Under the pieces are notes generated by a model. It saw only the letters and a list, made by a program, of their open reading frames with translations, was not told where the DNA came from and ran no database searches. This document shows, piece after piece, positions 3,156 to 32,949 of a stretch of DNA of 64,000 bases. Both the position numbers and the translations under genes were made by a program. Source of the stretch: an uncultured virus (IMG/VR IMGVR_UViG_3300043411_001904) (taxonomy: Duplodnaviria > Heunggongvirae > Uroviricota > Caudoviricetes); IMG/VR virus record IMGVR_UViG_3300043411_001904, one strand, 5' to 3'. The number at the start of each line of letters is the position of its first letter. Within the stretch, counting starts at the first letter, position 1.

Positions 3156-4316
3156 ATGTCCACTTATAGCTTTACAAGTAATAAAGTATCTTCAACATAT
3201 CCTAGAGTCTTACAAATCGGAGATGGTATTATTTATGATGGACTTGGAGAATTAGTACGTATAAATGATGTTAATATTGATAATCTTTATGCCTCATACT
3301 CAATATTAAGATCAGATGTAGATAATTTAGAATCTGGTATTACAGGACTACAGGGATTTCAAGGATTTCAAGGAAGACAAGGAAGACAGGGAGCGGTCGG
3401 GCAAAAAGGGGAGGGATTCCAAGGAAGTCAAGGACGTCAAGGACGTCAAGGCGCAAAAGGATCCGAATCTTCAAACTCTCTAATTTGGGATTGGGATAAC
3501 ACAATCCCAGCGACAAAAGTTGGAACTTTCTATACTGGTGGAGCAGGACTCGGGGGCGAAACTGATCTTACTCTTATCACGACTCTAATATTTAATAAAA
3601 CTTCACAGGATGGAAATGCACTTGAATGGCTTAGAGCTCTTGATTCACTTAGTTCCTCCACAACAAATCCCACTATATTAAAGTTATCATATTTAAATGA
3701 TCCCACCATTTGGGGCATTTATACTTTAGAATCGTCAACTGAAGCTCTTAATACTTATATATTTTCAATATCATGTATATCTGGAGATGGAGAATTTCCA
3801 GCTGTACTCGGTAGTAAATTTGTTGCATTTTCTTGGGTCTTATCAGGCATTGATGGATATACAGGATCCACAGGATTTCAAGGTACAACAGGATCCACAG
3901 GTATCCAGGGGTTTCAAGGATATACTGGAAGCCAAGGATTCCAAGGATACCAGGGGATTATAGGTGGTGGGACTGGATCAATTGCTATGTTTATTGATAG
4001 TGGATCCTCTGTTATAACAACTGGTGAAAAGTCTTATGTTATATCACCATTCGATTGTAATATTGTCTCTTGGAAAGTTATATCATCTATATCTGGTAGT
4101 TGTGTAATTGATATATGGAAGAATACTTCAATACCAACTGTTGCAAATACCATAATTGGCACATATTCAAAACCAACATTATCATCTCAACAAATAAATT
4201 CTGGCTTATCTACTGGTTGGACTTCCTCCGTATCTGCTGGAGATATAATTCTATTTAATGTTGATTCTGTATCAACCGTTCAGAAGATATATCTTTATTT
4301 AGAAATACAAAAATAA
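3156..4316 (+). CDS. collagen-repeat (G-x-Q) fibre/structural protein
   Basis: GFQ/GRQ triplet runs; Ser/Thr/Gly-rich C-terminal domain. Confidence 0.75.
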   Translation: MSTYSFTSNKVSSTYPRVLQIGDGIIYDGLGELVRINDVNIDNLYASYSILRSDVDNLESGITGLQGFQGFQGRQGRQGAVGQKGEGFQGSQGRQGRQGAKGSESSNSLIWDWDNTIPATKVGTFYTGGAGLGGETDLTLITTLIFNKTSQDGNALEWLRALDSLSSSTTNPTILKLSYLNDPTIWGIYTLESSTEALNTYIFSISCISGDGEFPAVLGSKFVAFSWVLSGIDGYTGSTGFQGTTGSTGIQGFQGYTGSQGFQGYQGIIGGGTGSIAMFIDSGSSVITTGEKSYVISPFDCNIVSWKVISSISGSCVIDIWKNTSIPTVANTIIGTYSKPTLSSQQINSGLSTGWTSSVSAGDIILFNVDSVSTVQKIYLYLEIQK

Positions 4317-6647: not shown

Positions 6648-7823
6648 CTAAACCTTATCAATATCAAACATACCTAATTTCTTCATACCCAATAAAAGAT
6701 CATTCAAAAGAGGCTGATAAACTTTTTGATTGTCAAAATTATCTTTAATATACAATTTAGTATACATCTGACTTATCTTTTTACAATGATCAACTAATGA
6801 ATTGAAAAGATAGTGTGGTGATTTTTCTGTCTTTGCTTGAAGAAAAGCATACTTTAACTGGTTAGATGTAAAATCAGAAATATCATTTGGTAACATACCC
6901 GCTGATTTCATTTTAGCTAGAGTATAACTCAAATACAGTCCCCAAGATGACTTAACATCATCAATTGATTTAAGATCAATATTCTTAACAGACTCAGGAG
7001 AGTATTTCAATATATGACCAGAGATAACATTCCAAGCTAATTTTTTATCTCCATCGAATTTAGAAGATACTTGGTCCAAAATATCATCCATCATAATAAC
7101 ATTACCTTCCGAAGACGACATCTTCTTACCATCAACCATAACCAACCCAAGACCAATATGATCAATATCAGGAAACAGAGATTTCAATGATTTAAAATGA
7201 TTATCTTGCTCAAATCCAGTTATGTATAAAGTAGACCCATCTAGTTTTTGTGCCAATGTAACATCTTGATAGAAATAGGAACTAGATCCGTCAGATTTAA
7301 TCCCAACAATCTTTGATCCATTAACATCAAAAACAAGAGTACCTTTATACTCTCCAACACCATCTTCAAGAATGGAAGTATTGACTAGCTTTTGTCCGGA
7401 AGCAAAATGAATTGAATCAATTTTATACCCAAATGATTCACAATGAGATTTAAATTTATCCAAGGCATCATCTTGATCAACCTTACCGGACAAAGTATCA
7501 CCTAAAATAGCAATATATTTTTCCCCAATACCTAATGATTGGATAGATTTTGCAAAAATCAAATTGGATAAGTGTCCCAAGTGTAGATGTTTATTCAAAT
7601 TTGGAGAAAATCCATCAACAAATTCATAAACCTTAGGTGATTCAAAAAGATCATATAGATTTTGATCTCCAATTAGAATATTAGTAAATCCACCCGATTT
7701 CTCAGATTCTAATCCCCAATGAGATATCCAATCAGATACTTTCTGATTCGGATCTCCCCATACACAGAAATTAAATCCCATGTTTTTAGGAGTAGTTTTA
7801 ATATCGGATATCTTGATCTTCAT
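6648..7823 (-). CDS. argS: arginyl-tRNA synthetase (compact, Arg-free)
   Basis: SPNLNKHLHLGH (HIGH), KSDG..Y..QD, YITGFEQDNHF, KMSSSEG (KMSKS), GLYLSYTLAK; start at MKIKIS directly after a TATATTTG promoter. Confidence 0.88.
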   Translation of the reverse strand: MKIKISDIKTTPKNMGFNFCVWGDPNQKVSDWISHWGLESEKSGGFTNILIGDQNLYDLFESPKVYEFVDGFSPNLNKHLHLGHLSNLIFAKSIQSLGIGEKYIAILGDTLSGKVDQDDALDKFKSHCESFGYKIDSIHFASGQKLVNTSILEDGVGEYKGTLVFDVNGSKIVGIKSDGSSSYFYQDVTLAQKLDGSTLYITGFEQDNHFKSLKSLFPDIDHIGLGLVMVDGKKMSSSEGNVIMMDDILDQVSSKFDGDKKLAWNVISGHILKYSPESVKNIDLKSIDDVKSSWGLYLSYTLAKMKSAGMLPNDISDFTSNQLKYAFLQAKTEKSPHYLFNSLVDHCKKISQMYTKLYIKDNFDNQKVYQPLLNDLLLGMKKLGMFDIDKV

Positions 7824-7839
7824 GGAACAAATATACGAA

Positions 7840-9258
7840 TTAAATCCGATCGAATAAAATTTGCTTTTTGCCACCCTTTATTAAAAGGTCAATCTCATCA
7901 CATTTCTCTTTTCCAAACAGCGGAACATATAAAGAATTAACAACATTCAATAGATAATCCAAATTTGATAATTGACTAAGATAATCAGTTGATGACCACG
8001 GCTTATTATCATTAATATACTTATTACCAACTTTAACCAACTCATTAGTAAATCTCAAAGCATCTTTTACTTTGAAATTGTTCCAAGATTCTCTCACTTT
8101 TTTATCATATGACAAAACCAAATCAACAAAATCATTTTGAGGATTAACTAGATTCCCTTCACATTTAATATCAACTAGATGGAGGACCCTAGACACCAAA
8201 TTGCCCCAATCATTCACAATTTCAGAGTTCCAAATATTCTTCAAATCGTCCTCATTCCAGGAAGAATCTGAATATGTACTTAGTCCACCCAAAGCATAGT
8301 ATCTAACGGGATACAATCCATATTTATCTAATTGTTCAATAGGATCTATAACATTCCCAATACTTTTGGAAATCTTAAGTCCATTTTTATCTAGAATCGT
8401 ACCATGCACCAATAACTTTCCGGTTTTCTTAATACCTTCAGATTCCAAAAATGATTGAAATATGATAGCCTGAAATCTAAGATTATCAGGACCACAAATC
8501 TGCACCACATCATTCCAATTAAAATTATCTGTTAAATATCCAGCAGCAAATATGTAATTTAATAAGGCCTCCAACCACACGTAAATGATCTGAGAATCAT
8601 CATCGGGCACTGAAATTCCCCAAGGACATTTTTGTACACTTCTAGACACAGATATGTCACCCACATTATCTATTAGATTATATAACTCATCTAATTTCGA
8701 TTTAGGTTCTAAGAAATTAGGATTTTGCTCAATCCAATTCAATAAAGAATTTCGATATTTAGAAATCTTAAAGAAATAATTCTCTTCTTCTATAATTTCA
8801 ATATTTGTTGTAGGATGATCTAAGCATTTACCATCAACTAGATCAGAGTCTTGTTTGTGTGATTCACATCCTTTGCAATATTTTCCTTTGTAAAATCCTT
8901 TATAAATATCTCCGCGATCTACAAACCTAGACCAAATTATCTTAACTTTCTCATGATGGTCGGGATCAGACGTCTTATAAAAGGAATCATACTCAATACT
9001 AAACCGATCACAGAAATCTTTCCAAGTATGTGTTAAATTCTTAATATATTCCGGAGTTGGAATTCCAATCTCTTGAGATTTCTCCCAGACTTTGGCTCCG
9101 TGTTCATCCAAACCAACATTAAAGTGAACATCATCCCCAATACTCTTGAACCATTTAGAGATAGCATCACCAAGAATAAATTCAAAAGCATGGCCAATAT
9201 GAGGAACTGAGTTCACATATGGCAAAGTGGTGGTTATAAATTTGTTTTTGATTTCTAT
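7840..9258 (-). CDS. metG: methionyl-tRNA synthetase (Met-free, no AUG start)
   Basis: KFITTTLPYVNSVPHIGH, GLDEHG, CxxC knuckle, YVWLEAL, KISKSIGN, NDWGNLVSR; start placed at ATA 9258 (alternatives ATT 9267, ATC 9252, TTG 9225). Confidence 0.9.
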   Translation of the reverse strand: MEIKNKFITTTLPYVNSVPHIGHAFEFILGDAISKWFKSIGDDVHFNVGLDEHGAKVWEKSQEIGIPTPEYIKNLTHTWKDFCDRFSIEYDSFYKTSDPDHHEKVKIIWSRFVDRGDIYKGFYKGKYCKGCESHKQDSDLVDGKCLDHPTTNIEIIEEENYFFKISKYRNSLLNWIEQNPNFLEPKSKLDELYNLIDNVGDISVSRSVQKCPWGISVPDDDSQIIYVWLEALLNYIFAAGYLTDNFNWNDVVQICGPDNLRFQAIIFQSFLESEGIKKTGKLLVHGTILDKNGLKISKSIGNVIDPIEQLDKYGLYPVRYYALGGLSTYSDSSWNEDDLKNIWNSEIVNDWGNLVSRVLHLVDIKCEGNLVNPQNDFVDLVLSYDKKVRESWNNFKVKDALRFTNELVKVGNKYINDNKPWSSTDYLSQLSNLDYLLNVVNSLYVPLFGKEKCDEIDLLIKGGKKQILFDRI

Positions 9259-9266
9259 TGATTTAA

Positions 9267-10445
9267 TTAATAACTTACAGGAAATGGAATAACATCATGA
9301 ATTTTCTGACTCTTACAAATATACATTAAAAGCCTTTCAAATCCTAAACCAAAACCTGAATGAACAACTGATCCCCATCTTCTAGTGGACAAATACCAAT
9401 CCATTTTTTGTATATCAATTCCAGAGCTCATAATTTCTGACTTTAGCTTGTCATAATCATCTTCTCTTTGGGAACCACCAACCAATTCTCCAACCTCTGG
9501 AAATATTAAATCGAAACACAAAGCCTTATCACCTTCGGTTTTCATATAAAATGGCTTCAATGACTTTGGATAATGTGTAATGAAAACAGGCAACTTATAC
9601 TTATCTGATATCAATTTTTCAACTTCAGATCCAATATCCTCACCATATTTAACTCCAAATTCTTTGCAAATTTCATCATATGTCCGAACAATCCAATCAG
9701 GATCAACAATTTTTAAATGATCAGATCCAATTCCCAACTGAGAAAATTCATAATCAGATTTAGTAACCACATATCTAATCGTCTTCTTCAAAAAATCCTC
9801 AGTGAATTTAACTGTTTGATCCAAATCGTAAAAAGCCATCTCAGGCTCAATCATCCAAAATTCAGATAAATGTTTCTTAGTTGCTGATTTCTCAGCTCGA
9901 AAACACGGAGAGAATGTATAAATTTTACCCAATGACATCATACCAACTTCACCATGAAGTTGTCCCGACACAGTTAGTTTTTCATCCATCCAATCTGATT
10001 TTACATCAAACGTCTCTCCGGCTCCTTCACAATCAGCATGGGTAATAATCGGGGTATAATATTGATAAAATCCAAAGTCCTCCAAAGTCCTATGGATAGC
10101 TTGTGTCAAATGATGTCTAATCTTCCATGTAGCTTGAAATCCTTTCGTTCTACCCCTTAGTTCAGGAATGGTTCTAAGGTAATCTAATGTGTGATGTTTT
10201 GGTTGAATAGGATAATCATCATCAGAAGAACCAACAATTTCTATTCGAGATGCCAAAAACTCAGGCAGTCCCTTAGGTGTCATTGAATCCATTCCCTGAC
10301 ATATCAGAGACGACCCAACTTTTGGGTCCCCAATGACCACACAATCTCCATCCCTTGCGGTGACTTGGTGATCTCTAGCACCATCTGTAACTGATAGGAA
10401 CATCAATCCCTTTGATTTCCTAACTGATTTTATCCAACCTTTCAT
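9267..10445 (-). CDS. asnS: asparaginyl-tRNA synthetase (Asn-free)
   Basis: OB-fold start (KGWIKSVR), DCEGAGETF, LTVSGQL, FRAEKS..KHLSEFWMIEPE, GELVGGSQRE, GFGLGFERL. Confidence 0.92.
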   Translation of the reverse strand: MKGWIKSVRKSKGLMFLSVTDGARDHQVTARDGDCVVIGDPKVGSSLICQGMDSMTPKGLPEFLASRIEIVGSSDDDYPIQPKHHTLDYLRTIPELRGRTKGFQATWKIRHHLTQAIHRTLEDFGFYQYYTPIITHADCEGAGETFDVKSDWMDEKLTVSGQLHGEVGMMSLGKIYTFSPCFRAEKSATKKHLSEFWMIEPEMAFYDLDQTVKFTEDFLKKTIRYVVTKSDYEFSQLGIGSDHLKIVDPDWIVRTYDEICKEFGVKYGEDIGSEVEKLISDKYKLPVFITHYPKSLKPFYMKTEGDKALCFDLIFPEVGELVGGSQREDDYDKLKSEIMSSGIDIQKMDWYLSTRRWGSVVHSGFGLGFERLLMYICKSQKIHDVIPFPVSY

Positions 10446-10701
10446 CTTCAATTTGTTTTATTTTGTTGCTCCTTCTTAATACTTTAAGGATTGATCTGAA
10501 TTCTTCTTTATGATCTTCTTTCCATAACGTGGTTCCCGATCCACAATTACCATAAAAAACCGTCAATCCTATTCTATCTCCACTATCTACATACTCCCAA
10601 GATATTGGTGTATTAGGAGATAAAATTCCCGGAAATGTCAACCTAATAGCCTCTAAAATAACAGGATCAGAATTAGGAAATTTAACCTCTTTATACTCCA
10701 T
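10420..10701 (-). CDS. hypothetical protein with C-terminal RxxKI motif
   Basis: RRSNKIKQI near C-terminus. Confidence 0.6.
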   Translation of the reverse strand: MEYKEVKFPNSDPVILEAIRLTFPGILSPNTPISWEYVDSGDRIGLTVFYGNCGSGTTLWKEDHKEEFRSILKVLRRSNKIKQIEDERLDKIS

Positions 10702-11378: not shown

Positions 11379-11394
11379 ATTGTTAGTATTTTTG

Positions 11395-11480
11395 TACCGG
11401 AGGTTGGAGTCGAACCAACAATAGGAGTAAACCAATCCCCTTATGAGGAGGACACCATTACCACATCGGATCACACCGGC
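11395..11480 (-). tRNA. tRNA with CAT anticodon (Met or Ile2) on a long-variable-arm body
   Basis: TCCTC-CTCATAA-GGGGA; about 15-nt variable region; GTTGG-TTCGACT-CCAAC. Confidence 0.8.
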
Positions 11481-14346: not shown

Positions 14347-14445
14347 TGGTGAACTAGATTGGAATTGAACCAACTTTTGCGACCGTAATGGTCGCCGTAG
14401 ACCGACTATCCACTTCATGTGGCGGACCATTACTACCTCTAGCTC
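14347..14445 (-). ncRNA. tRNA-like RNA with hairpin inserted in the D-loop, non-canonical anticodon loop and encoded CCA
   Basis: GAGCTAG/CTAGTTC-ACCA acceptor; GTAG/CTAC D-stem enclosing CCAC-ATGAA-GTGG; GCGACC-ATTAC-GGTCGC. Confidence 0.7.
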
Positions 14446-14448
14446 TAG

Positions 14449-14531
14449 AAGCGGGAATCAGATTCGAACTGATGTTCTCTTTCGAGTTAGGGCTTATGAG
14501 GCCCCTGGTACCATCTCCAGTCGATCCCGCG
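14449..14531 (-). tRNA. initiator-like tRNA-Met(CAT) with extra variable hairpin
   Basis: C1:U72 mismatch; GGGC-CTCATAA-GCCC; CTC-GAAA-GAG extra arm. Confidence 0.75.
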
Positions 14532-14634: not shown

Positions 14635-14639
14635 ATTAG

Positions 14640-14725
14640 TGATTCTGGTAGGAATCGAACCTACGTTAACCTATTCGGCCTTCCGGTTGTAAGCCGGACG
14701 TTCTTAACCACTGAACTACAGAATC
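14640..14725 (-). tRNA. tRNA-Val(TAC) with long variable arm
   Basis: TCCGG-CTTACAA-CCGGA; GGCC-GAATA-GGTT extra arm. Confidence 0.8.
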
Positions 14726-14808: not shown

Positions 14809-14813
14809 TCTTG

Positions 14814-14888
14814 TTGGATCAAATGGATTCGAACCATTGGCCTTCCCAATCTTGTTAGGGACGTTCTTCCTGACTGAACTACAATCCA
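14814..14888 (-). tRNA. tRNA-like gene, undetermined anticodon
   Basis: intact acceptor, D and T arms; enlarged loop TAACAAGATT. Confidence 0.7.
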
Positions 14889-14894
14889 ATTTTG

Positions 14895-14971
14895 TTGCGA
14901 CGAATGGATTTGAACCACTGACCTTTCCCCTAATAAGGTGGGAATGCTCTCCCTGACTGAGCTACATCGCA
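14895..14971 (-). tRNA. tRNA-like gene, undetermined anticodon (10-nt loop)
   Basis: TTCCC-ACCTTATTAG-GGGAA with intact other arms. Confidence 0.7.
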
Positions 14972-16161: not shown

Positions 16162-16206
16162 ACCCTATATATTCAGAAGTGTGAGCTTCCCTTGGAAAGG
16201 GAGTAG

Positions 16207-16294
16207 AGCCGGGAGTGGGATTCAAACCCACGATGGTCGCTTTCGCTATACTAACTTACAAGGTTAGGGCCTTCGTTCTCTTGGCTATCCCGGC
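16207..16294 (-). tRNA. tRNA-Thr(TGT) with long variable arm
   Basis: CTAAC-CTTGTAA-GTTAG; GC-GAAA-GC extra arm. Confidence 0.8.
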
Positions 16295-19066: not shown

Positions 19067-19079
19067 ATTTATTATTTTG

Positions 19080-19149
19080 CTCCATCAATAGGATTCGAAC
19101 CTATACCTCCGAGATAAATCTCGGTGTGCCACCGTGACACCACAATGAA
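19080..19149 (-). tRNA. tRNA-like gene with collapsed anticodon loop
   Basis: CCGAGA-TTTA-TCTCGG; other arms intact. Confidence 0.7.
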
Positions 19150-19299: not shown

Positions 19300-19309
19300 A
19301 TGTTTGTTG

Positions 19310-19393
19310 TCCAAGAGGAAGGATTCGAACCTCCGTAAAAGATCCACAAACGCAAATCGTTGTGAAAATTGACTTCCAATAGTCTACTCTCGG
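19310..19393 (-). tRNA. tRNA-like gene with extended anticodon arm
   Basis: CCGAGAG/CTCTTGG acceptor; D and T arms present; TTCACAA..TTGTGGA long arm. Confidence 0.65.
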
Positions 19394-21137: not shown

Positions 21138-21791
21138 TTACCAACGGTCTGTTTCTTTTGAAGACAAATCATCCTCAACAATATATTCTAATAAGGACTC
21201 TATGGAATCATATTTTTTCTTACCATAATCACTGAATATTATATTATTCTCAGATATATAGTGAACCTGTTTCATGTAATTATGACTATCATGAGAATAT
21301 AATAATCCAAAAAGAACATACCCACCATCCATTCTTTTTAGTTTATTTCCTAGGAATTTAATAGAATCTACAACATCTGTCTTTAATTCAAACTTCTCTT
21401 CGTTATCATCCATAGAATATCTAGTTACAATTACGAAGTGTGCTTGTTCAGTCTCCTTATTGAATCCTGAAACGTAAACACCATCCAATTGGATAAAATA
21501 TCTGTTAGCTAAATCGTGATGAACTTTATCTTCACTCTGATTTTTCTGAAATACAAAATTTAATTGATCATCATCTAAATCAAAAATACTCTTGGGAAGA
21601 GATCCGAACTTTTCCTCAGATTCTTTTTCTTTTCTTTCTCTAAGAATGGATCGAATGAATCTTATTTGATCTTCAAGAAGTTCCTGCTCCTCAAACATAA
21701 CATCTAGTTTTTCTCTTAACTCATCATCGTCCAAATTATGAAGAAAGTCAATATTCATATTTTCTTTAATGAATTGGTTATACTTCTTCAT
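21138..21791 (-). CDS. hypothetical late protein (MKKYNQFIKE tag)
   Basis: TAATATATA upstream; N-terminus closely resembles the T4 capsid-targeting sequence. Confidence 0.7.
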   Translation of the reverse strand: MKKYNQFIKENMNIDFLHNLDDDELREKLDVMFEEQELLEDQIRFIRSILRERKEKESEEKFGSLPKSIFDLDDDQLNFVFQKNQSEDKVHHDLANRYFIQLDGVYVSGFNKETEQAHFVIVTRYSMDDNEEKFELKTDVVDSIKFLGNKLKRMDGGYVLFGLLYSHDSHNYMKQVHYISENNIIFSDYGKKKYDSIESLLEYIVEDDLSSKETDRW

Positions 21792-21801
21792 ATGATATAT
21801 A

Positions 21802-22278
21802 TTACTTTGTGATGTATAAAATGAACTTAGTAGTCCTATATCTATCCTTAAGTATTTTAGACTCAAACCCAAACATTGAATTAATTCGATCAGCCATAGA
21901 TTGGAGATCTTCTAAAAACTTAAGCCTGGTCGTATAAAAATCATTTGGTCCAGATATATCAAAATAAAAAGATATAGATCGATTTTGGTATCCTATTGAT
22001 ATCCACGGTAGGGTCTGTCGAGGCATAGGATCCGATCCGTCCCATTGAAAAATACCATTCCAGTGGAATACATCAGATATTGCTTGTCGATCCATTAGTG
22101 ATGGATGAACAGGGTCTAATCCCAAGAATAGATAATTTATATTCTTGTGGCTCCTATGTCTCATTAGATCAGAAAATTGCCACTCATCGTCTAAATCTTG
22201 AAAGATATCGAGAATTCCCAATTCGTCCTCCTTGGTTAATTGATATTCGACTGACTCGTTAAATCTTTTTATTTTCAT
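21802..22278 (-). CDS. hypothetical late protein (MKIKRFNES tag)
   Basis: TAATATATA upstream. Confidence 0.7.
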   Translation of the reverse strand: MKIKRFNESVEYQLTKEDELGILDIFQDLDDEWQFSDLMRHRSHKNINYLFLGLDPVHPSLMDRQAISDVFHWNGIFQWDGSDPMPRQTLPWISIGYQNRSISFYFDISGPNDFYTTRLKFLEDLQSMADRINSMFGFESKILKDRYRTTKFILYITK

Positions 22279-27069: not shown

Positions 27070-27281
27070 TACAATCCCAATTTATCTAACTTAATACCCC
27101 TCAATTTACAAACAATCTTTGATAGATTATTCCCATTCCAAAAACTACATAAAATCATTACTGAAGAGCTAAATTTACCACCACAACAATTACACTCAAA
27201 AATAACATCACCAAGATGATTATTCTGATATAATGGAACCATTTCCAAATTAATACAACAATTAGCACATATTAGAATCAT
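27069..27281 (-). CDS. small Cys-rich protein with C-terminal RxxKL motif
   Basis: CANC..CNCC; LRGIKLDKL. Confidence 0.5.
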   Translation of the reverse strand: MILICANCCINLEMVPLYQNNHLGDVIFECNCCGGKFSSSVMILCSFWNGNNLSKIVCKLRGIKLDKLGL

Positions 27282-28057
27282 ACCTTGACCAAATCAATTT
27301 TATTCCATTTTTTATTAAGAAAATTTAATTTGTTAAGATCAATTCCACAATTGTTTTTCGAAATGTGACCCTCGTTAAAAAGTCTTACCATGTCATCAAT
27401 ACTCAAAATTTGATTATTCTTATCAAAGTTGGGATCAGGGTGTGACCAACCAAGCCTAAAAATCCAATTTAGGATAGCTTTCTTATTATAGTCATTATAG
27501 AATTCCATAGAGCTAGTACCATCCCTCTTAGATATCTTTCGACCACTTTGGAAGAGTAGCCCAGCGTGATGGACATTAGGGAATACTTTACCACCCTCAA
27601 CAGAGGCGATCATATCCCAAATTTTAATTTGCTTTTCAAGATTATTAATATGGTCCACACCACGAACTATATCCGTAATATCGTAGTCATAGTCATCTAA
27701 AATCGAGCAGAAATTATAAGTCGGGAATCCGTTATTTCTGAGAATGACCATTTTATAGTCGCCCATATCAACTTCATACCCCTTATCTGATAGAGTGCCA
27801 ATTTTCTTAGCAACATAAGCATATCTATCCAACCGACTAGATTGTGAAAAGGTAACATCATGATCGAATCCAAAAGATCCCATCATGTTATAGATATAAT
27901 CAATGTGTTCTTTTTTATTTCTTTCTTGATCAGTATCATCTATTCGAAGAATAAAAGAACCATCATTGGACTTAGCCATTAAATAATTAAGAAGAGCTGT
28001 CCGAAGAGTTCCAATATGGAAAAGGCCAGTGGGGGATGGGGCAACTCGTGTTTTCAT
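27278..28057 (-). CDS. gltX: glutamyl-tRNA synthetase-like catalytic domain (GluRS/GluQ-like, truncated)
   Basis: TRVAPSPTG.FHIG, LRIDDTD, GFPTYN, VRGVDH, KISKRDG, LGWS; no anticodon-binding domain. Confidence 0.8.
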   Translation of the reverse strand: MKTRVAPSPTGLFHIGTLRTALLNYLMAKSNDGSFILRIDDTDQERNKKEHIDYIYNMMGSFGFDHDVTFSQSSRLDRYAYVAKKIGTLSDKGYEVDMGDYKMVILRNNGFPTYNFCSILDDYDYDITDIVRGVDHINNLEKQIKIWDMIASVEGGKVFPNVHHAGLLFQSGRKISKRDGTSSMEFYNDYNKKAILNWIFRLGWSHPDPNFDKNNQILSIDDMVRLFNEGHISKNNCGIDLNKLNFLNKKWNKIDLVKV

Positions 28058-28084: not shown

Positions 28085-28549
28085 CTAAATTCCAATAGAT
28101 GATATTTTTTCATCCCTAAAGCAACGACCACCCAATGAATAATATCCCGATCCAATAAGACCATCAGATTTAACAAAATTTAAATATTTGAGATCAACCA
28201 TTCTCTGTAAAAATGGTTTATATATGGAATTTTCGAATCCATTGTGATAGCTTTCCCTAAGACAATACTTATTCCTATACTGAGGATATCTACCATAATA
28301 TTCATTCTCTATAAGAAGATGTTCCTTACTTATTAAGAAGGAATAAACAACCCAACAACCAGAATAAAATGGTGTTGATTCACTTTTACCCATTTTATCC
28401 CAATAGCACTTTAGGGTCCAATCACAATCCTCACTAAATAATGATTTAACAAATTTAACAAATTCAATAGGATCAATACTCTCAATTAGAGAATTGATAT
28501 CCCCATTGATATGGTATTGACCATCAGAATAGGAAACTACAACCTGCAT
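28085..28549 (-). CDS. hypothetical protein with C-terminal RxxKI motif
   Basis: FRDEKISSI; start moved outside the tRNA. Confidence 0.6.
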   Translation of the reverse strand: MQVVVSYSDGQYHINGDINSLIESIDPIEFVKFVKSLFSEDCDWTLKCYWDKMGKSESTPFYSGCWVVYSFLISKEHLLIENEYYGRYPQYRNKYCLRESYHNGFENSIYKPFLQRMVDLKYLNFVKSDGLIGSGYYSLGGRCFRDEKISSIGI

Positions 28550-28551
28550 TG

Positions 28552-28638
28552 TGGGGTGTGAATGGATTCGAACCACCGAAGCCCCGAAGGGCACCCAAGG
28601 TACAACTTGAGCTCTTTTGACCACTTGGATAACACCCC
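28552..28638 (-). tRNA. tRNA-Tyr(GTA)-like with irregular anticodon loop
   Basis: GGGGTGT/ACACCCC; GCCC-TTCG-GGGC variable arm; loop containing TTGTAC. Confidence 0.75.
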
Positions 28639-28782
28639 TTAGTCTTCAATAGTTGACAATTGATACTCATACCACATATCCATCAAATCTAGACACTGAT
28701 CCTCAGAAAGGTCTACTTTTTCAAGATCGTTAATAGGATTTACCATTTGATTTTATTTAGACTACAAATATAAGAAAAAAAT

Positions 28783-29398: not shown

Positions 29399-29751
29399 TA
29401 ATTTATAAGAGAATCAATCTTCAGATTCCTTAAAGATGACCTCAATTTAGATATTTCTTCCTTTACAACCACCTCATTTTTCCAATTACTTTCGATAAAT
29501 GAAAAACTATCGTCTAAAACTTTAAGGAAACTCTTGATGTTACTTGAAATATTGGGATTTATATTACCATTACCAGGCCACAAAAGCTCAATTCGACTAT
29601 CTCCATTTTGGATAGGGAAAAATATATTAGTTTCCCCAATACAAGGAGAAAATGATTCAATGAGAGACTCAATTTTTTCGTCAACTGCATGTCTAGCCAA
29701 TCCATTAACATTAACATAGACAACAAAAATAGGACTATCTAACCTCGACAT
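29398..29751 (-). CDS. hypothetical protein with C-terminal RxxKI motif
   Basis: LRNLKIDSLIN. Confidence 0.6.
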   Translation of the reverse strand: MSRLDSPIFVVYVNVNGLARHAVDEKIESLIESFSPCIGETNIFFPIQNGDSRIELLWPGNGNINPNISSNIKSFLKVLDDSFSFIESNWKNEVVVKEEISKLRSSLRNLKIDSLIN

Positions 29752-30247
29752 AATTCTTACTTATATCTAATGATAGATTCCGATTACTAAATTGTTTTAA
29801 ACCAGTTACTTCCAAAAGACAAACATCCTTAATAAAATTGGGTATTTTTAATTTATAAGCTCTAGTTGGAATTTCTATCTCAGCAACTATTAAATGATAT
29901 CCATTATCAAACTCATCAACTTCCCAATTTAACCTCCCATATGGATAAATATGTCTAATCTTCTTAATAAATCTAGAAGATACTTCTGGGTCTAAGCATT
30001 TTTCTTTAAATTCCAAAAATTCTTTCTTGGAAATGTCTTTCTCATCTTCTAAATTTTCCAATTTAGAGATGCTCTTTTTTATAGTATGAATATATCTTAT
30101 TCCAGATTTGGAATCCCACTCCCGTACCCTTTCCCAAATTCCTGATTTATTTTTCATGTAGAACTGATCAATTTTTACCGAATCTATTGGTTGAATATCC
30201 GGTAAAGACTTTAAGAGAAATTTTCTCTCAATTTCGATTTTTGGCAT
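29735..30247 (-). CDS. CYTH-domain triphosphate tunnel metalloenzyme
   Basis: EIERKFL, WEVDEF, AEIE, EVTG..FSN. Confidence 0.88.
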   Translation of the reverse strand: MPKIEIERKFLLKSLPDIQPIDSVKIDQFYMKNKSGIWERVREWDSKSGIRYIHTIKKSISKLENLEDEKDISKKEFLEFKEKCLDPEVSSRFIKKIRHIYPYGRLNWEVDEFDNGYHLIVAEIEIPTRAYKLKIPNFIKDVCLLEVTGLKQFSNRNLSLDISKNYVEVR

Positions 30248-30731: not shown

Positions 30732-31485
30732 GGGGCTGAGATTATACCCGTTATCGACAAATCTTTTGTGAGATTATGTTTTCCTCACTTATCCACCAAT
30801 GTTGCCACTGGTATCTTGTCAATCTCAGTTACTTGAAGGGTAACCAATCCTATCGTGTGTCCAAACTCAACCATTACTCCATCTATTCAGAAGTGCCCTC
30901 CTGATTCAACCTTGCGGGTCTATAAACTTTTCGTGATCAAAACAACAGACCTTGCGGGTTTATTGTCTCCCAATTTACCAAAGGTATTAGGAATTAGAGA
31001 CCTTTCGGAAATACACGCCACGAGAATTTGGCTTTATTTTATATAATGCAATAAAATTGATTATTGGACGACGCTCTCGTGGAGCAGCTACGATCCTTTT
31101 GGAATCACAATACTACACGCCATCCTATCAGTTCCCTGATGGTCAAGAAGATCTCCGCTAAAAGCGTCATGAATCACACGCACATAGTGCGGGACACAGA
31201 ACACATATTCCACATCGACCAACTAAACTGAAACAAGCATTCTAGAAGTTGGCTTCTATCACACTCAAATCCACAAATCATCTTATAGCCTTAAGCATCA
31301 AACACCACATTTAGGGACATAATCACATCCATAGTATGATATTGAGATCCAAGTCACTTGACCGAGGTTCTCATACCGATTCGCTTATGATTAAACTCTT
31401 TAACAAGTCGGGATTGTTACCCTTTATCCCCGTTACCGGGTATTATTTATTCACATCCGAAGATGTGATGGACTCCATACAGCCC
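30732..31485 (-). ncRNA. large ornate ncRNA, GOLLD-like (about 750 nt)
   Basis: no credible ORF; higher GC; 5' GGGCTG pairs with 3' CAGCCC; many GNRA/UUCG hairpins (CCCGCAAGG twice, CCGAAAGG, CTTCGG); next to tRNA-like genes; family name from size and recalled motifs only. Confidence 0.65.
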
Positions 31486-31512
31486 AATATTTTCAATATG
31501 TAAAAGAACTAG

Positions 31513-31587
31513 TGGGTTTCTGAGGACTCTAACCTCAAGATTCGCCAACTATTAAACACTAGGTGTATAACAATTGCAAATAAACCC
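31513..31587 (-). ncRNA. tRNA-like RNA (acceptor plus T-arm, single long hairpin replacing D and anticodon arms)
   Basis: GGGTTT/AAACCC-A; TGAGG-TTAGAGT-CCTCA. Confidence 0.55.
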
Positions 31588-31591
31588 TTTG

Positions 31592-31733
31592 TAGTCTGTC
31601 CAGGATTCGAACCTGATTTTCCGAGTGAAGCTCGGCGTCCTAGTGTGATAATCAACTCAGATCTTCAGACGAGATCCTCAAATTAATCCAACACACCTCC
31701 ATCATAAAGATGGATCCAGTAGACGAACAGACC
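31592..31733 (-). ncRNA. tRNA-Glu-derived RNA with a structured D-loop insertion of about 80 nt
   Basis: GGTCTGTTCGTCTA..TAGGAC; CCGAG-CTTCA-CTCGG; TTCGAAT T-loop; ACAGACT-A. Confidence 0.75.
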
Positions 31734-31761
31734 AAAAATTCGATGGAATAACCCATCATCG

Positions 31762-31939
31762 CAGTCTGTATTGGATTCGAACCAATGTTACCAATTAGAT
31801 CGTAACCTAATTAGTGTCCTAATATATTTTAGTCAAACGAGCTCAAGGCTCAGGTCATATAAAAAATTTTATACATTTTAATATAATATATTAAATTTTG
31901 ACCGACTAAAATACATTGGTACCCCTAGACGAACAGACC
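31762..31939 (-). ncRNA. tRNA-Glu-derived RNA with a D-loop insertion of about 100 nt and a tetraloop-capped anticodon arm
   Basis: same 5' GGTCTGTTCGTCTA; insertion closed by TATTTTAGTC/GACTAAAATA; ATTAGGT-TACG-ATCTAAT. Confidence 0.75.
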
Positions 31940-32017
31940 AAGAATATTCAAAGAACATTAACAATACAAATATAAGTAAAAATTTCTGAACTACAAAATA
32001 TTTTTTACTTTTTTTAG

Positions 32018-32104
32018 TGACCCGTTGTGGATATGAACCACAATCCCACATCCCATCTGGTTAACCCAATCGGGAATCTTGTGTCTTGCTTAGACTAACG
32101 GATC
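32018..32104 (-). ncRNA. tRNA-like RNA with extended anticodon arm
   Basis: GATCCGT/ACGGGTC-A; GTCT/AGAC D-stem; TGTGG-TTCATAT-CCACA. Confidence 0.65.
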
Positions 32105-32250
32105 ATTTCTGATTAACTTTACAAATATAAATCTAAATTTTCATCTAGACAATTTTTTTGTAAAAATTCTCAGAAAACTAGATCTGATACTCTTATCCTC
32201 GTCTTTCAGAGGACATTTATAGGTTGAAAATCAACCAATCTAGTTAAATA

Positions 32251-32853
32251 AAAACCTAGTATTGCTCGGTTTCTTTGAGTATGACCATTACTGTCAACAC
32301 ACCCCCTAGTCCGGGGTTCATACTCTTTGTCACATAGTTATTATCAGAACTATGACTGGTGAGACTAAGTTTATTCTACACTTCCACTTGACCTGTTGTA
32401 CTCAATCCTTGTTACCAAGGATTCAGTCAAGTTTGATGAATCTATTTCAAATATTGAGGAATACTATTCATAGATCCCTTTCGGGTGAAATACCACACTT
32501 TCATATGATATCATAGACACTTCTAAACTTAGAATCGTGATTTTTATCAGATAAATCTGATTTCCCTCAACTAATATGTAATTTATGTTTTTTTCATAAA
32601 TTTATATTTTTATGGGTTGGATTCTTTACCTTGTAAAGATAAAATCACAAATCCTTTAATTTTTAGGCAACTACACTATACTGGGGGTATAGATCTACAC
32701 CTAAAACACTAGACAACTTCTGTATATCCCCATACACATCTATGTCGTCCCAAGGATGAAGTCCAGCTCCTACACAGTCTATCACTGCTACTACTAGATC
32801 CTTGTTTTGAGTATCCTCTTACGAGTCCTAGTTTAGGTTAGTAACCTAGGTTT
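32251..32853 (-). ncRNA. large ornate ncRNA, ROOL-like (about 600 nt)
   Basis: no ORF; AAACCTAG/CTAGGTTT closing stem; hairpins GAATCCTTG-GTAA-CAAGGATT, GAGTATGA..TCATACTC, CCCGAAAGGG; upstream hairpin plus GTTCTTTGAAA boxA; family name from size and recalled motifs only. Confidence 0.6.
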
Positions 32854-32949
32854 ATACACCGCTCAACATCGGTGGTTTCAATAAATTTTCAAAGAACAAC
32901 CAAGTTTTTCTCGACTTGGAATATTTATATATTGGGTGATTAAAAGGTT

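Follow-up and report, generated by a model that had tools for sequence, protein, structure and literature searches.

tRNA-Glu-core RNAs with D-loop additions in large phages, and a candidate minimal synthetase partner

Comparative sequence analysis indicates that there is a family of RNAs in large phages in which a tRNA-Glu core carries an addition at a fixed site in the D-loop, together with a damaged or replaced anticodon arm. The family is real and under selection, consists of modular derivatives of tRNA-Glu for which a dedicated enzyme is plausible, and is apparently undescribed. Our judgement is evenly balanced on the proposal that we favour, in which a phage GluRS blind to the anticodon would charge these non-decoding RNAs, probably as part of a conflict that targets tRNA.

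The window, that is the whole stretch of 64,000 nucleotides that was analysed (uncultured virus, IMG/VR record IMGVR_UViG_3300043411_001904), carries two members of the family, B and C, next to two further tRNA-like elements, A and D (Table 1). The window is AT-rich and contains 23 tRNAs predicted by ARAGORN, a phage lysozyme, PhoH and four tRNA synthetase genes, a combination that fits a jumbo phage. Numbers preceded by L or G are our own handles for loci and records.

Table 1. Positions of the elements and neighbouring features in the window
Feature	Position	Strand	Description or basis
Upstream structured RNA, ~720 nt	32180..32900	-	folding z -4.95, 0/20 shuffles
Promoter-like TTG..TAnnTTTG, upstream of A	32122..32152	-	motif reading
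A, tRNA-like	32018..32104	-	7-bp acceptor, Glu/Asp-like D stem without GG, T arm without A58
Promoter-like TTG..TAnnTTTG, upstream of B	31996-31967, within 31948..31996	-	motif reading
boxA-like GTTCTTTGA, upstream of B	from 31956	-	motif reading
B, tRNA-Glu core, 178 nt	31762..31939	-	sequence and folding
B D-loop insert, 102 nt, branched	31821-31922	-	between D-loop GG and AG
Short terminator-like hairpin separating B and C	31741..31758	-	flagged by scan
C, tRNA-Glu core, 142 nt	31592..31733	-	sequence and folding
C D-loop insert, 74 nt, two hairpins	31642-31715	-	between D-loop GG and AG
D, tRNA-like	31513..31587	-	acceptor and T-arm-like helix, one long hairpin, no D arm
GOLLD RNA	30733-31490	-	3′ domain 30733-31125 by Rfam RF02032
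mini-GluRS, 259 aa, proposed partner	27278..28057	-	GluRS catalytic domain match

Layout of the locus and its tRNA-like elements

All four elements lie on the minus strand, where the upstream large RNA is followed by a promoter-like motif, A, a second promoter-like motif with a boxA-like motif, B, the short hairpin, C, D, another boxA-like motif, GOLLD, one ORF and a terminator. The TTG..TAnnTTTG motifs in front of A and B correspond to what we take to be the Bacteroidota promoter consensus, and GTTCTTTGA upstream of B is presumably a boxA-like sequence. Of 87 family members, 27 have TAnnTTTG no more than 60 nt away, as opposed to 3 of 101 ordinary tRNAs, and its presence before A, B and other members suggests a Bacteroidota host. 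A sigma-70 promoter scan yielded matches at chance level.

GOLLD was recognised by Rfam RF02032 at 252 bits (gathering score 150), and its 5′ end at about 31490 was placed by likeness to other GOLLD starts. The initial annotation had located the elements between giant ncRNAs, which stands for GOLLD; the RNA on the other side is structured by its folding score, and a search of 32150-32900 returned no Rfam family at E≤10, ROOL included. It is a candidate new large ncRNA. Mapped on its predicted fold, a variant contig shows 5 changes that are compensatory, 13 that are one-sided but keep the pair, 4 that break a pair and 11 at unpaired positions. RNA contigs (from four of the seven listed runs, in two studies) covered GOLLD (30750-31439) and the upstream RNA (32209-32865) and contained neither 31454-32097 nor the neighbouring ORFs; they showed no joints, and are uninformative on element expression or splicing.

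B and C both start with GGTCTGTTCGTCTA, and the common tRNA-Glu 5′ end and 3′ ACAGACT noticed earlier were confirmed: their first 14 nt and their 3′ acceptor strands are identical, and ACAGACT is followed by the discriminator (G in B, A in C) with no encoded CCA. Both RNAs have a 7-bp acceptor, a D stem, a T arm with a TTCRA loop, a 7/5 acceptor branch and a 4-nt variable loop (UAAC in B), and by sequence both carry U11-A24 and U13-G22:A46 and lack residue 47. A decoding-type anticodon arm (5-bp stem, 7-nt loop, U33, YUC, purine 37) is absent from either RNA. The shrunken TTC loop described for one of them is the 5-nt loop CUUCA on the 5-bp arm of C, while the TACG tetraloop described for the other caps the long stem (UACG) that replaces the anticodon arm of B. 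Against the Rfam tRNA model (RF00005), C scored 21.4 bits, under the 29-bit cut-off, and B gave no tRNA match. Assignment of B and C to the allo-tRNAs was considered and rejected on their 7/5 branch and 4-nt variable loop.

The D-loop inserts of B and C are unrelated and folded, as had been claimed, with insert-only z-scores of -6.5 and -3.5, respectively. Their sizes had been put at about 100 and 80 nt; the former agrees with the 102 nt of B, and the latter becomes 74 nt for C by the borders set here. Whole-RNA folding z-scores were -5.21 for B (0/200 shuffles as good) and -3.16 for C (1/200), and the free minimum-energy fold of B equals its cloverleaf-constrained fold, while that of C lies 1.5 kcal/mol below the constrained one. 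The further idea that the inserts are cargo with targets found no backing, since their longest antisense matches in the window (11-14 nt) did not go beyond what shuffles gave, lying inside that range or at its upper end, and the inserts are mostly plain hairpins that are often UUCG-capped.

A has a two-helix hairpin where the anticodon arm would be, and D begins 4 nt after C and has an A at position 56; their folding z-scores were -2.61 and -4.37, respectively. ARAGORN's reading of A as tRNA-Gly(CCC) was rejected, as the triplet sits in the two-helix hairpin, and low-threshold ARAGORN output was treated as noise. Relatives of A, D or the upstream RNA were found neither by blastn or nhmmer across the fetched loci nor by a relaxed search near GOLLD, and a 17-nt viral scan returned 17 loci of which none aligned at E≤1e-3. 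Since they lack the elbow consensus and no relatives were found, A and D were classed as degenerate or separate tRNA-like RNAs; the acceptor and T-arm helices with rebuilt middles ascribed to them were recovered, the elbow consensus and family membership were not.

Elsewhere on the minus strand of the window, the main tRNA cluster holds more tRNA-shaped RNAs with a 10-nt, 6-nt or no anticodon loop (14813-14971, 19079-19149, 19309-19393 and 14347-14440), and the ARAGORN labels Leu(AAG), Stop(TTA) and Ala(TGC) in this cluster look unreliable. Val, Thr and Met anticodons occur on bodies with a long variable region (14639-14725, 16206-16294, 14448-14531 and 11394-11480), a possible mismatch between identity and anticodon. 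A tRNA-Tyr(GUA)-like gene (~28553-28645), missed by ARAGORN at its default score, overlaps the start of ORF 28085-28624. Following the GOLLD locus is a 170-aa ORF with an EIERKF start (29735-30247), without a Pfam match and presumably CYTH-like, and a similar-looking gene follows the GOLLD locus of LR745206.1 (L566, ~21700-22000).

Recovery and anatomy of the RNA family

A scan with the 14-mer shared by B and C returned at least 115 loci, made up of ordinary tRNA-Glu genes, chance matches and three loci of the same design, one of them with four tandem copies. Later scans used gapped patterns over viral, metagenome and genome collections. The parser yielded at least 103 distinct scaffolds whose D-loop insert measures 8 nt or more, and at least 102 ordinary scaffolds; 33 rows were dropped (archaeal-type interrupted tRNAs, tandem duplications, N-containing or over-long sequences), and removal of 14 more (archaeal-looking, cellular or mis-parsed) gave at least 89 distinct family members. 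These searches were biased towards Glu-type D stems and, in the later gapped scans, also towards inserts of up to about 36 nt; a long-insert viral scan returned 6 loci and no family members. The search pattern imposed U11-A24 and U13-G22, and left A46, the 15:48 pair and full acceptor pairing free.

The constant scaffold with variable insert that had been proposed from B and C is supported across the 89 listed members. Among these, which use 34 different 5′ acceptor strands, all seven acceptor pairs form in 83 (the parser demanded at least six), A46 is present in 83, and positions 15:48 are G:C (53) or A:U (23) in 76; both the stems and the 15:48 pair covary. Decay of the scaffold in relatives, which the initial annotation had named as evidence against it, was not seen, since 35 of 43 viral pattern matches had 7/7 acceptor pairs under a pattern without this demand. 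The same was true for 71 of the 121 metagenome matches listed, but for just 19 of the 119 genome matches listed. An encoded CCA occurs in 10 of the 89. Insert length ranges from 13 to 102 nt, B being the longest, and the inserts are unrelated hairpins without common sequence in which UUCG is the commonest loop; 76 of the 103 listed inserts fold better than shuffles at z<-1.5.

A canonical anticodon arm was found in 11 of the 89 listed members versus 90 of 102 ordinary tRNAs. Short arms are present in 71 members including C, and long, rebuilt arms with no anticodon loop at the decoding position in the other 18, including B. A central YUC remains in 52 of the 71 short arms, mostly in mis-sized or shifted loops (17.6 in shuffles, maximum 27), which means that the anticodon has not just been thrown away. 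The canonical arms read UUC or CUC in 7 of 11 cases, three canonical loops place UCG or UAG on a Glu core, and a canonical Glu anticodon is missing from all 22 members whose records also carry mini-GluRS. Ordinary tRNA-Glu genes are present alongside the elements in L117 and LR745206.1. Judged by their arms, most family members probably cannot decode.

A strict bulge-helix-bulge at the insert borders occurs in 0 of 89 members, yet also in 0 of 5 archaeal-looking controls. Rfam gave no group I intron match at the locus, and the size of such introns is far above the 13-102 nt of the inserts.

Several related designs were observed beside the listed members. A D-loop hairpin of this kind is also present on a Gly-type tRNA in L130 (3574-3670), which lies 10 nt after GOLLD and shows that the design is not limited to Glu. 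A subfamily in L116 (2785-2980, 3999-4121) and L117 (3874-4265) has as its anticodon arm a junction in which a AAAAATTGTAAAA strand is conserved, and one copy has a D-loop insert of ~110 nt. Upstream of the Glu-type array in L120 (~3640-3728) lies a Tyr-like scaffold whose anticodon loop is replaced by a loop of 5 nt. Finally, a repeated non-coding motif of ~250 nt that starts with GGGCTGTCCATGG was seen beside elements and GOLLD in L450 (3560-3800) and L298 (4013-4160, 4321-4530).

A minimal GluRS and its co-occurrence with the RNAs

About 3.5 kb downstream of the elements, the window encodes a short GluRS-like protein (mini-GluRS) that consists of a Rossmann catalytic fold and what we take to be the stem-contact fold, after which the chain stops. 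Some 87 residues of the presumed acceptor-binding insertion are replaced by 18, and the anticodon-binding domain is wholly absent, the end corresponding to about residue 338 of 490 in 4g6z. The best 120 homologues span 243-284 aa, HIGH- and KMSKS-type motifs are largely conserved among the homologues, and 20 sampled rows formed one clade (100/100) against 11 longer GluRSs. A single-sequence search for loci related to mini-GluRS returned none, a sensitivity failure given that other searches found homologues. The structural model (pLDDT 92) had GluRSs as its best fold matches. Mini-GluRS was much nearer to GltX than to YadB both in sequence comparison (E 1.8e-66 and 1.2e-35, respectively) and in fold comparison (TM 0.80 and 0.66). 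Scores remained below the cut-offs of both TIGR00464 (GltX; 225 bits, cut-off 289.95) and TIGR03838 / PRK05710 (GluQ-RS/YadB; 118.6 bits, cut-off 276.7).

Glu makes up 2.7% of the mini-GluRS (7 residues) and 5.7% of nine other proteins of the window, and no more than 5 Glu occur in 40 of the enzyme's best 120 homologues; in the same way, the ArgRS, MetRS and AsnRS of the window (6648-10451, minus strand) have 0 Arg, 0 Met and 0 Asn, respectively. Such sparing of the enzyme's own amino acid favours the supply of Glu-tRNA for translation in those lineages. In G005, however, the Glu-poor enzyme is the full-length phage GluRS (L550, 298657-299694; 1.6%), whereas the coexisting mini-GluRS has 7.1% Glu, in keeping with a distinct task for the mini-GluRS there.

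A truncated E. coli GluRS still favours tRNA-Glu (PMC2777447), and the zinc-binding insertion is absent from some natural GluRSs (PMC4381286). Besides the anticodon, U11-A24, U13-G22:A46 and a missing residue 47 are major determinants of E. coli tRNA-Glu (PMC9976931). The parts kept by mini-GluRS match those kept by the RNAs, namely the acceptor and D-helix determinants.

Mini-GluRS was present in 6 of 28 element-bearing records (a set that leaves out 17 metagenome loci) and in 0 of 93 controls, many of which are small fragments. These controls comprised 46 GOLLD records chosen for length and absence of elements, 39 further GOLLD records and 8 ordinary-tRNA records; the record-wide element screen covers the first 46, and one of the 46 had a small D-loop insert with the anticodon intact. 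Among records of at least 70 kb, the counts were 5 of 13 element-bearing viral records and 0 of 36 controls. In the reverse direction (n=1), the only GenBank phage found with a mini-GluRS, LR745206.1, has three members flanking its GOLLD, the enzyme gene being 400 kb away from them. L386 carries a more distant GluRS-like gene that also ends with the stem-contact fold and lies ~65 nt ahead of a member. Element-bearing G003, G004, G016 and G024 (95% complete) have no GluRS at all, and G012, G014 and G021 just a full-length one. The mini-GluRS positives represent about four related lineages, so that shared ancestry can explain the linkage at least in part.

A conserved gene neighbourhood or a Glu-tRNA-consuming enzyme was not found around mini-GluRS and the elements in the records examined. 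GluTR, ATE/Bpt and L/F transferase were absent from the 5 records searched, and a Lant_dehydr_N search gave no match anywhere, controls likewise being blank.

Proposed function, alternatives and relation to known systems

Comparison of the members shows selection on the acceptor and D stems, the elbow and the T arm, with D-loop position 20/21 and the anticodon arm left free to vary. In the charging mechanism that we propose, the elements would be transcribed with GOLLD from promoters of their own, after which host tRNA enzymes (RNase P and RNase Z) would cut them out and CCA would be added. The mini-GluRS, having kept acceptor and D-stem reading and lost anticodon reading, would then load them with glutamate, a step suggested by the matching anatomy and the co-occurrence. 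As charged and abundant stand-ins for tRNA-Glu they might, as their most likely if speculative use, occupy host tRNA-targeting effectors, and the D-loop domain would be a stable structural add-on rather than a guide.

Tentatively, and with our judgement leaning against it, enzyme and RNAs may constitute a natural orthogonal pair in huge phages, in which an anticodon-blind minimal GluRS serves glutamylated tRNA-core RNAs that act outside normal decoding (as charged decoys, codon-independent A-site ligands or Glu donors), and a few UCG/UAG copies put Glu at Arg/Leu codons.

The relation to GOLLD bears on a different explanation, which we find unlikely: that the elements are mascRNA-like processing marks whose tRNA shape recruits RNase P and RNase Z to trim GOLLD and other large RNAs, the enzyme link being a coincidence of lineage. 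By a profile built from 77 GOLLD loci, GOLLD is present at 13 of 34 element loci of at least 5 kb, and members lie 5-10 nt or 132-583 nt downstream of its 3′ end or 1.1-2.2 kb upstream of it. Processing would suit this presence, the members that start 5 nt (L043/L116) or 10 nt (L263; LR745206.1; the Gly-type copy of L130) past the GOLLD 3′ end, and the absence of a TAnnTTTG promoter between D and GOLLD in the window. It would not explain the 21 element loci without GOLLD, the scarcity of elements at flank-fetched GOLLD loci (5 of 82), or the arrays of 4-5 copies that precede GOLLD 3′ ends by 1.1-2.2 kb at loci where a separate promoter serves GOLLD; moreover, one mark would be enough and Glu identity unneeded. 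The processing of neighbouring large RNAs raised in the initial annotation fits just some of the loci; members follow GOLLD by 5-10 nt in a few and by 132-583 nt in others, and lie upstream of it in the window and in most arrays. The GOLLD-element link is real, yet neither RNA needs the other.

Retention of YUC in the short arms, UUC or CUC in most canonical arms and Glu-sparing in a third of the best 120 mini-GluRS homologues would all be expected of working tRNA-Glu variants, in which the D-loop hairpin and altered loops resist host tRNA nucleases, GAA/GAG are still read and a Glu-poor mini-GluRS does the charging when Glu-tRNA is scarce; phage tRNAs have been proposed to evade nucleases by anticodon-loop changes (PMC10264068; PMC12445682). 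We nevertheless rate this as quite improbable for the family, as the 18 long-arm members, B included, lack an anticodon loop where decoding would take place, the loop of C is 5 nt and ordinary tRNA-Glu genes coexist, so that a subset at most could work in this way.

That the RNAs act uncharged, as decoys or as partners of the GOLLD cage, with mini-GluRS doing another job such as a GluQ-RS-like modification, seems to us very unlikely. GluQ-RS (YadB), which leaves acceptor ends uncharged, has no anticodon domain either (PMC9437257), encapsulation of tRNA in cages has been proposed (bioRxiv 2024.12.08.627333), and elements do occur without mini-GluRS; however, mini-GluRS is nearer to GltX than to YadB and keeps the stem-contact fold. 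Least credible of all is that the elements are pseudogenes in decay, or that an intron is spliced out of them to yield an ordinary tRNA. There are signs of degeneration in A, in D and in a deleted copy in L337, and archaeal-looking D-loop-interrupted tRNAs match the same search pattern; but the stems and the 15:48 pair covary, and most inserts fold well and share no common sequence. Excision to a normal tRNA was the other outcome named beforehand as counter-evidence, yet with the insert removed the anticodon arm would still be non-canonical in 78 of 89 members, B and C included.

If the pair of charged RNA and mini-GluRS is real, it would be a natural synthetase-tRNA system without anticodon reading and would permit a direct test of how minimal catalytic cores choose their RNA. 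It would also give a function to jumbo-phage RNAs missed by tRNA finders and a handle on the role of GOLLD loci. In nature, a folded domain of 100 nt or more can be accommodated at D-loop position 20/21, which makes this position a possible second display site for tRNA-scaffold engineering.

A full-text literature search, with most subscription papers, the original GOLLD paper and supplements outside its reach, did not turn up any account of phage tRNA-Glu look-alikes with an expanded D-loop, nor of the mini-GluRS family; such genes might be among the tRNAs and synthetases tabulated in PMC7162821. The available text on tRNAs near or inside GOLLD describes the same association of GOLLD with tRNA islands, with ordinary tRNAs and no D-loop-expanded or anticodon-less forms (bioRxiv 2024.12.08.627333; PMC12990946). 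T4 RNAC and RNAD are also small phage RNAs from a tRNA region with a role that is unknown (PMC3014915, PMC9697503).

Bacterial and phage tRNA-Glu (RF00005) have the acceptor, D stem, A46, 4-nt variable loop and T arm of B and C, and one phage tRNA-Glu (L007) even has the same first 14 nt; the family differs in its folded D-loop domain and in its anticodon arm. Allo-tRNAs are likewise natural tRNA-shaped RNAs with anticodon-independent identity, some of them outside translation, but they have an 8/4 or 9/3 branch, a long V arm and Ser or Ala identity, whereas the family is 7/5 and Glu-type with its addition in the D-loop (PMC5389517). The mascRNA is a tRNA-like RNA beside a long ncRNA, without a conserved anticodon loop and with claimed tRNA-Glu determinants; unlike the family, with its arrays, variable domains and candidate synthetase, it is mammalian, occurs once per transcript and is not aminoacylated (PMC9976931). 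On the enzyme side, GluQ-RS/YadB and GltX share the GluRS catalytic fold with mini-GluRS, and YadB also lacks the anticodon-binding domain, while mini-GluRS falls below both cut-offs, has lost most of the acceptor-binding insertion present in both, keeps the stem-contact fold and forms a separate clade. Taken on its sequence features, the family would work most like a tRNA-like structure with a synthetase of its own, and appears to be neither a decoding tRNA-Glu nor an allo-tRNA.
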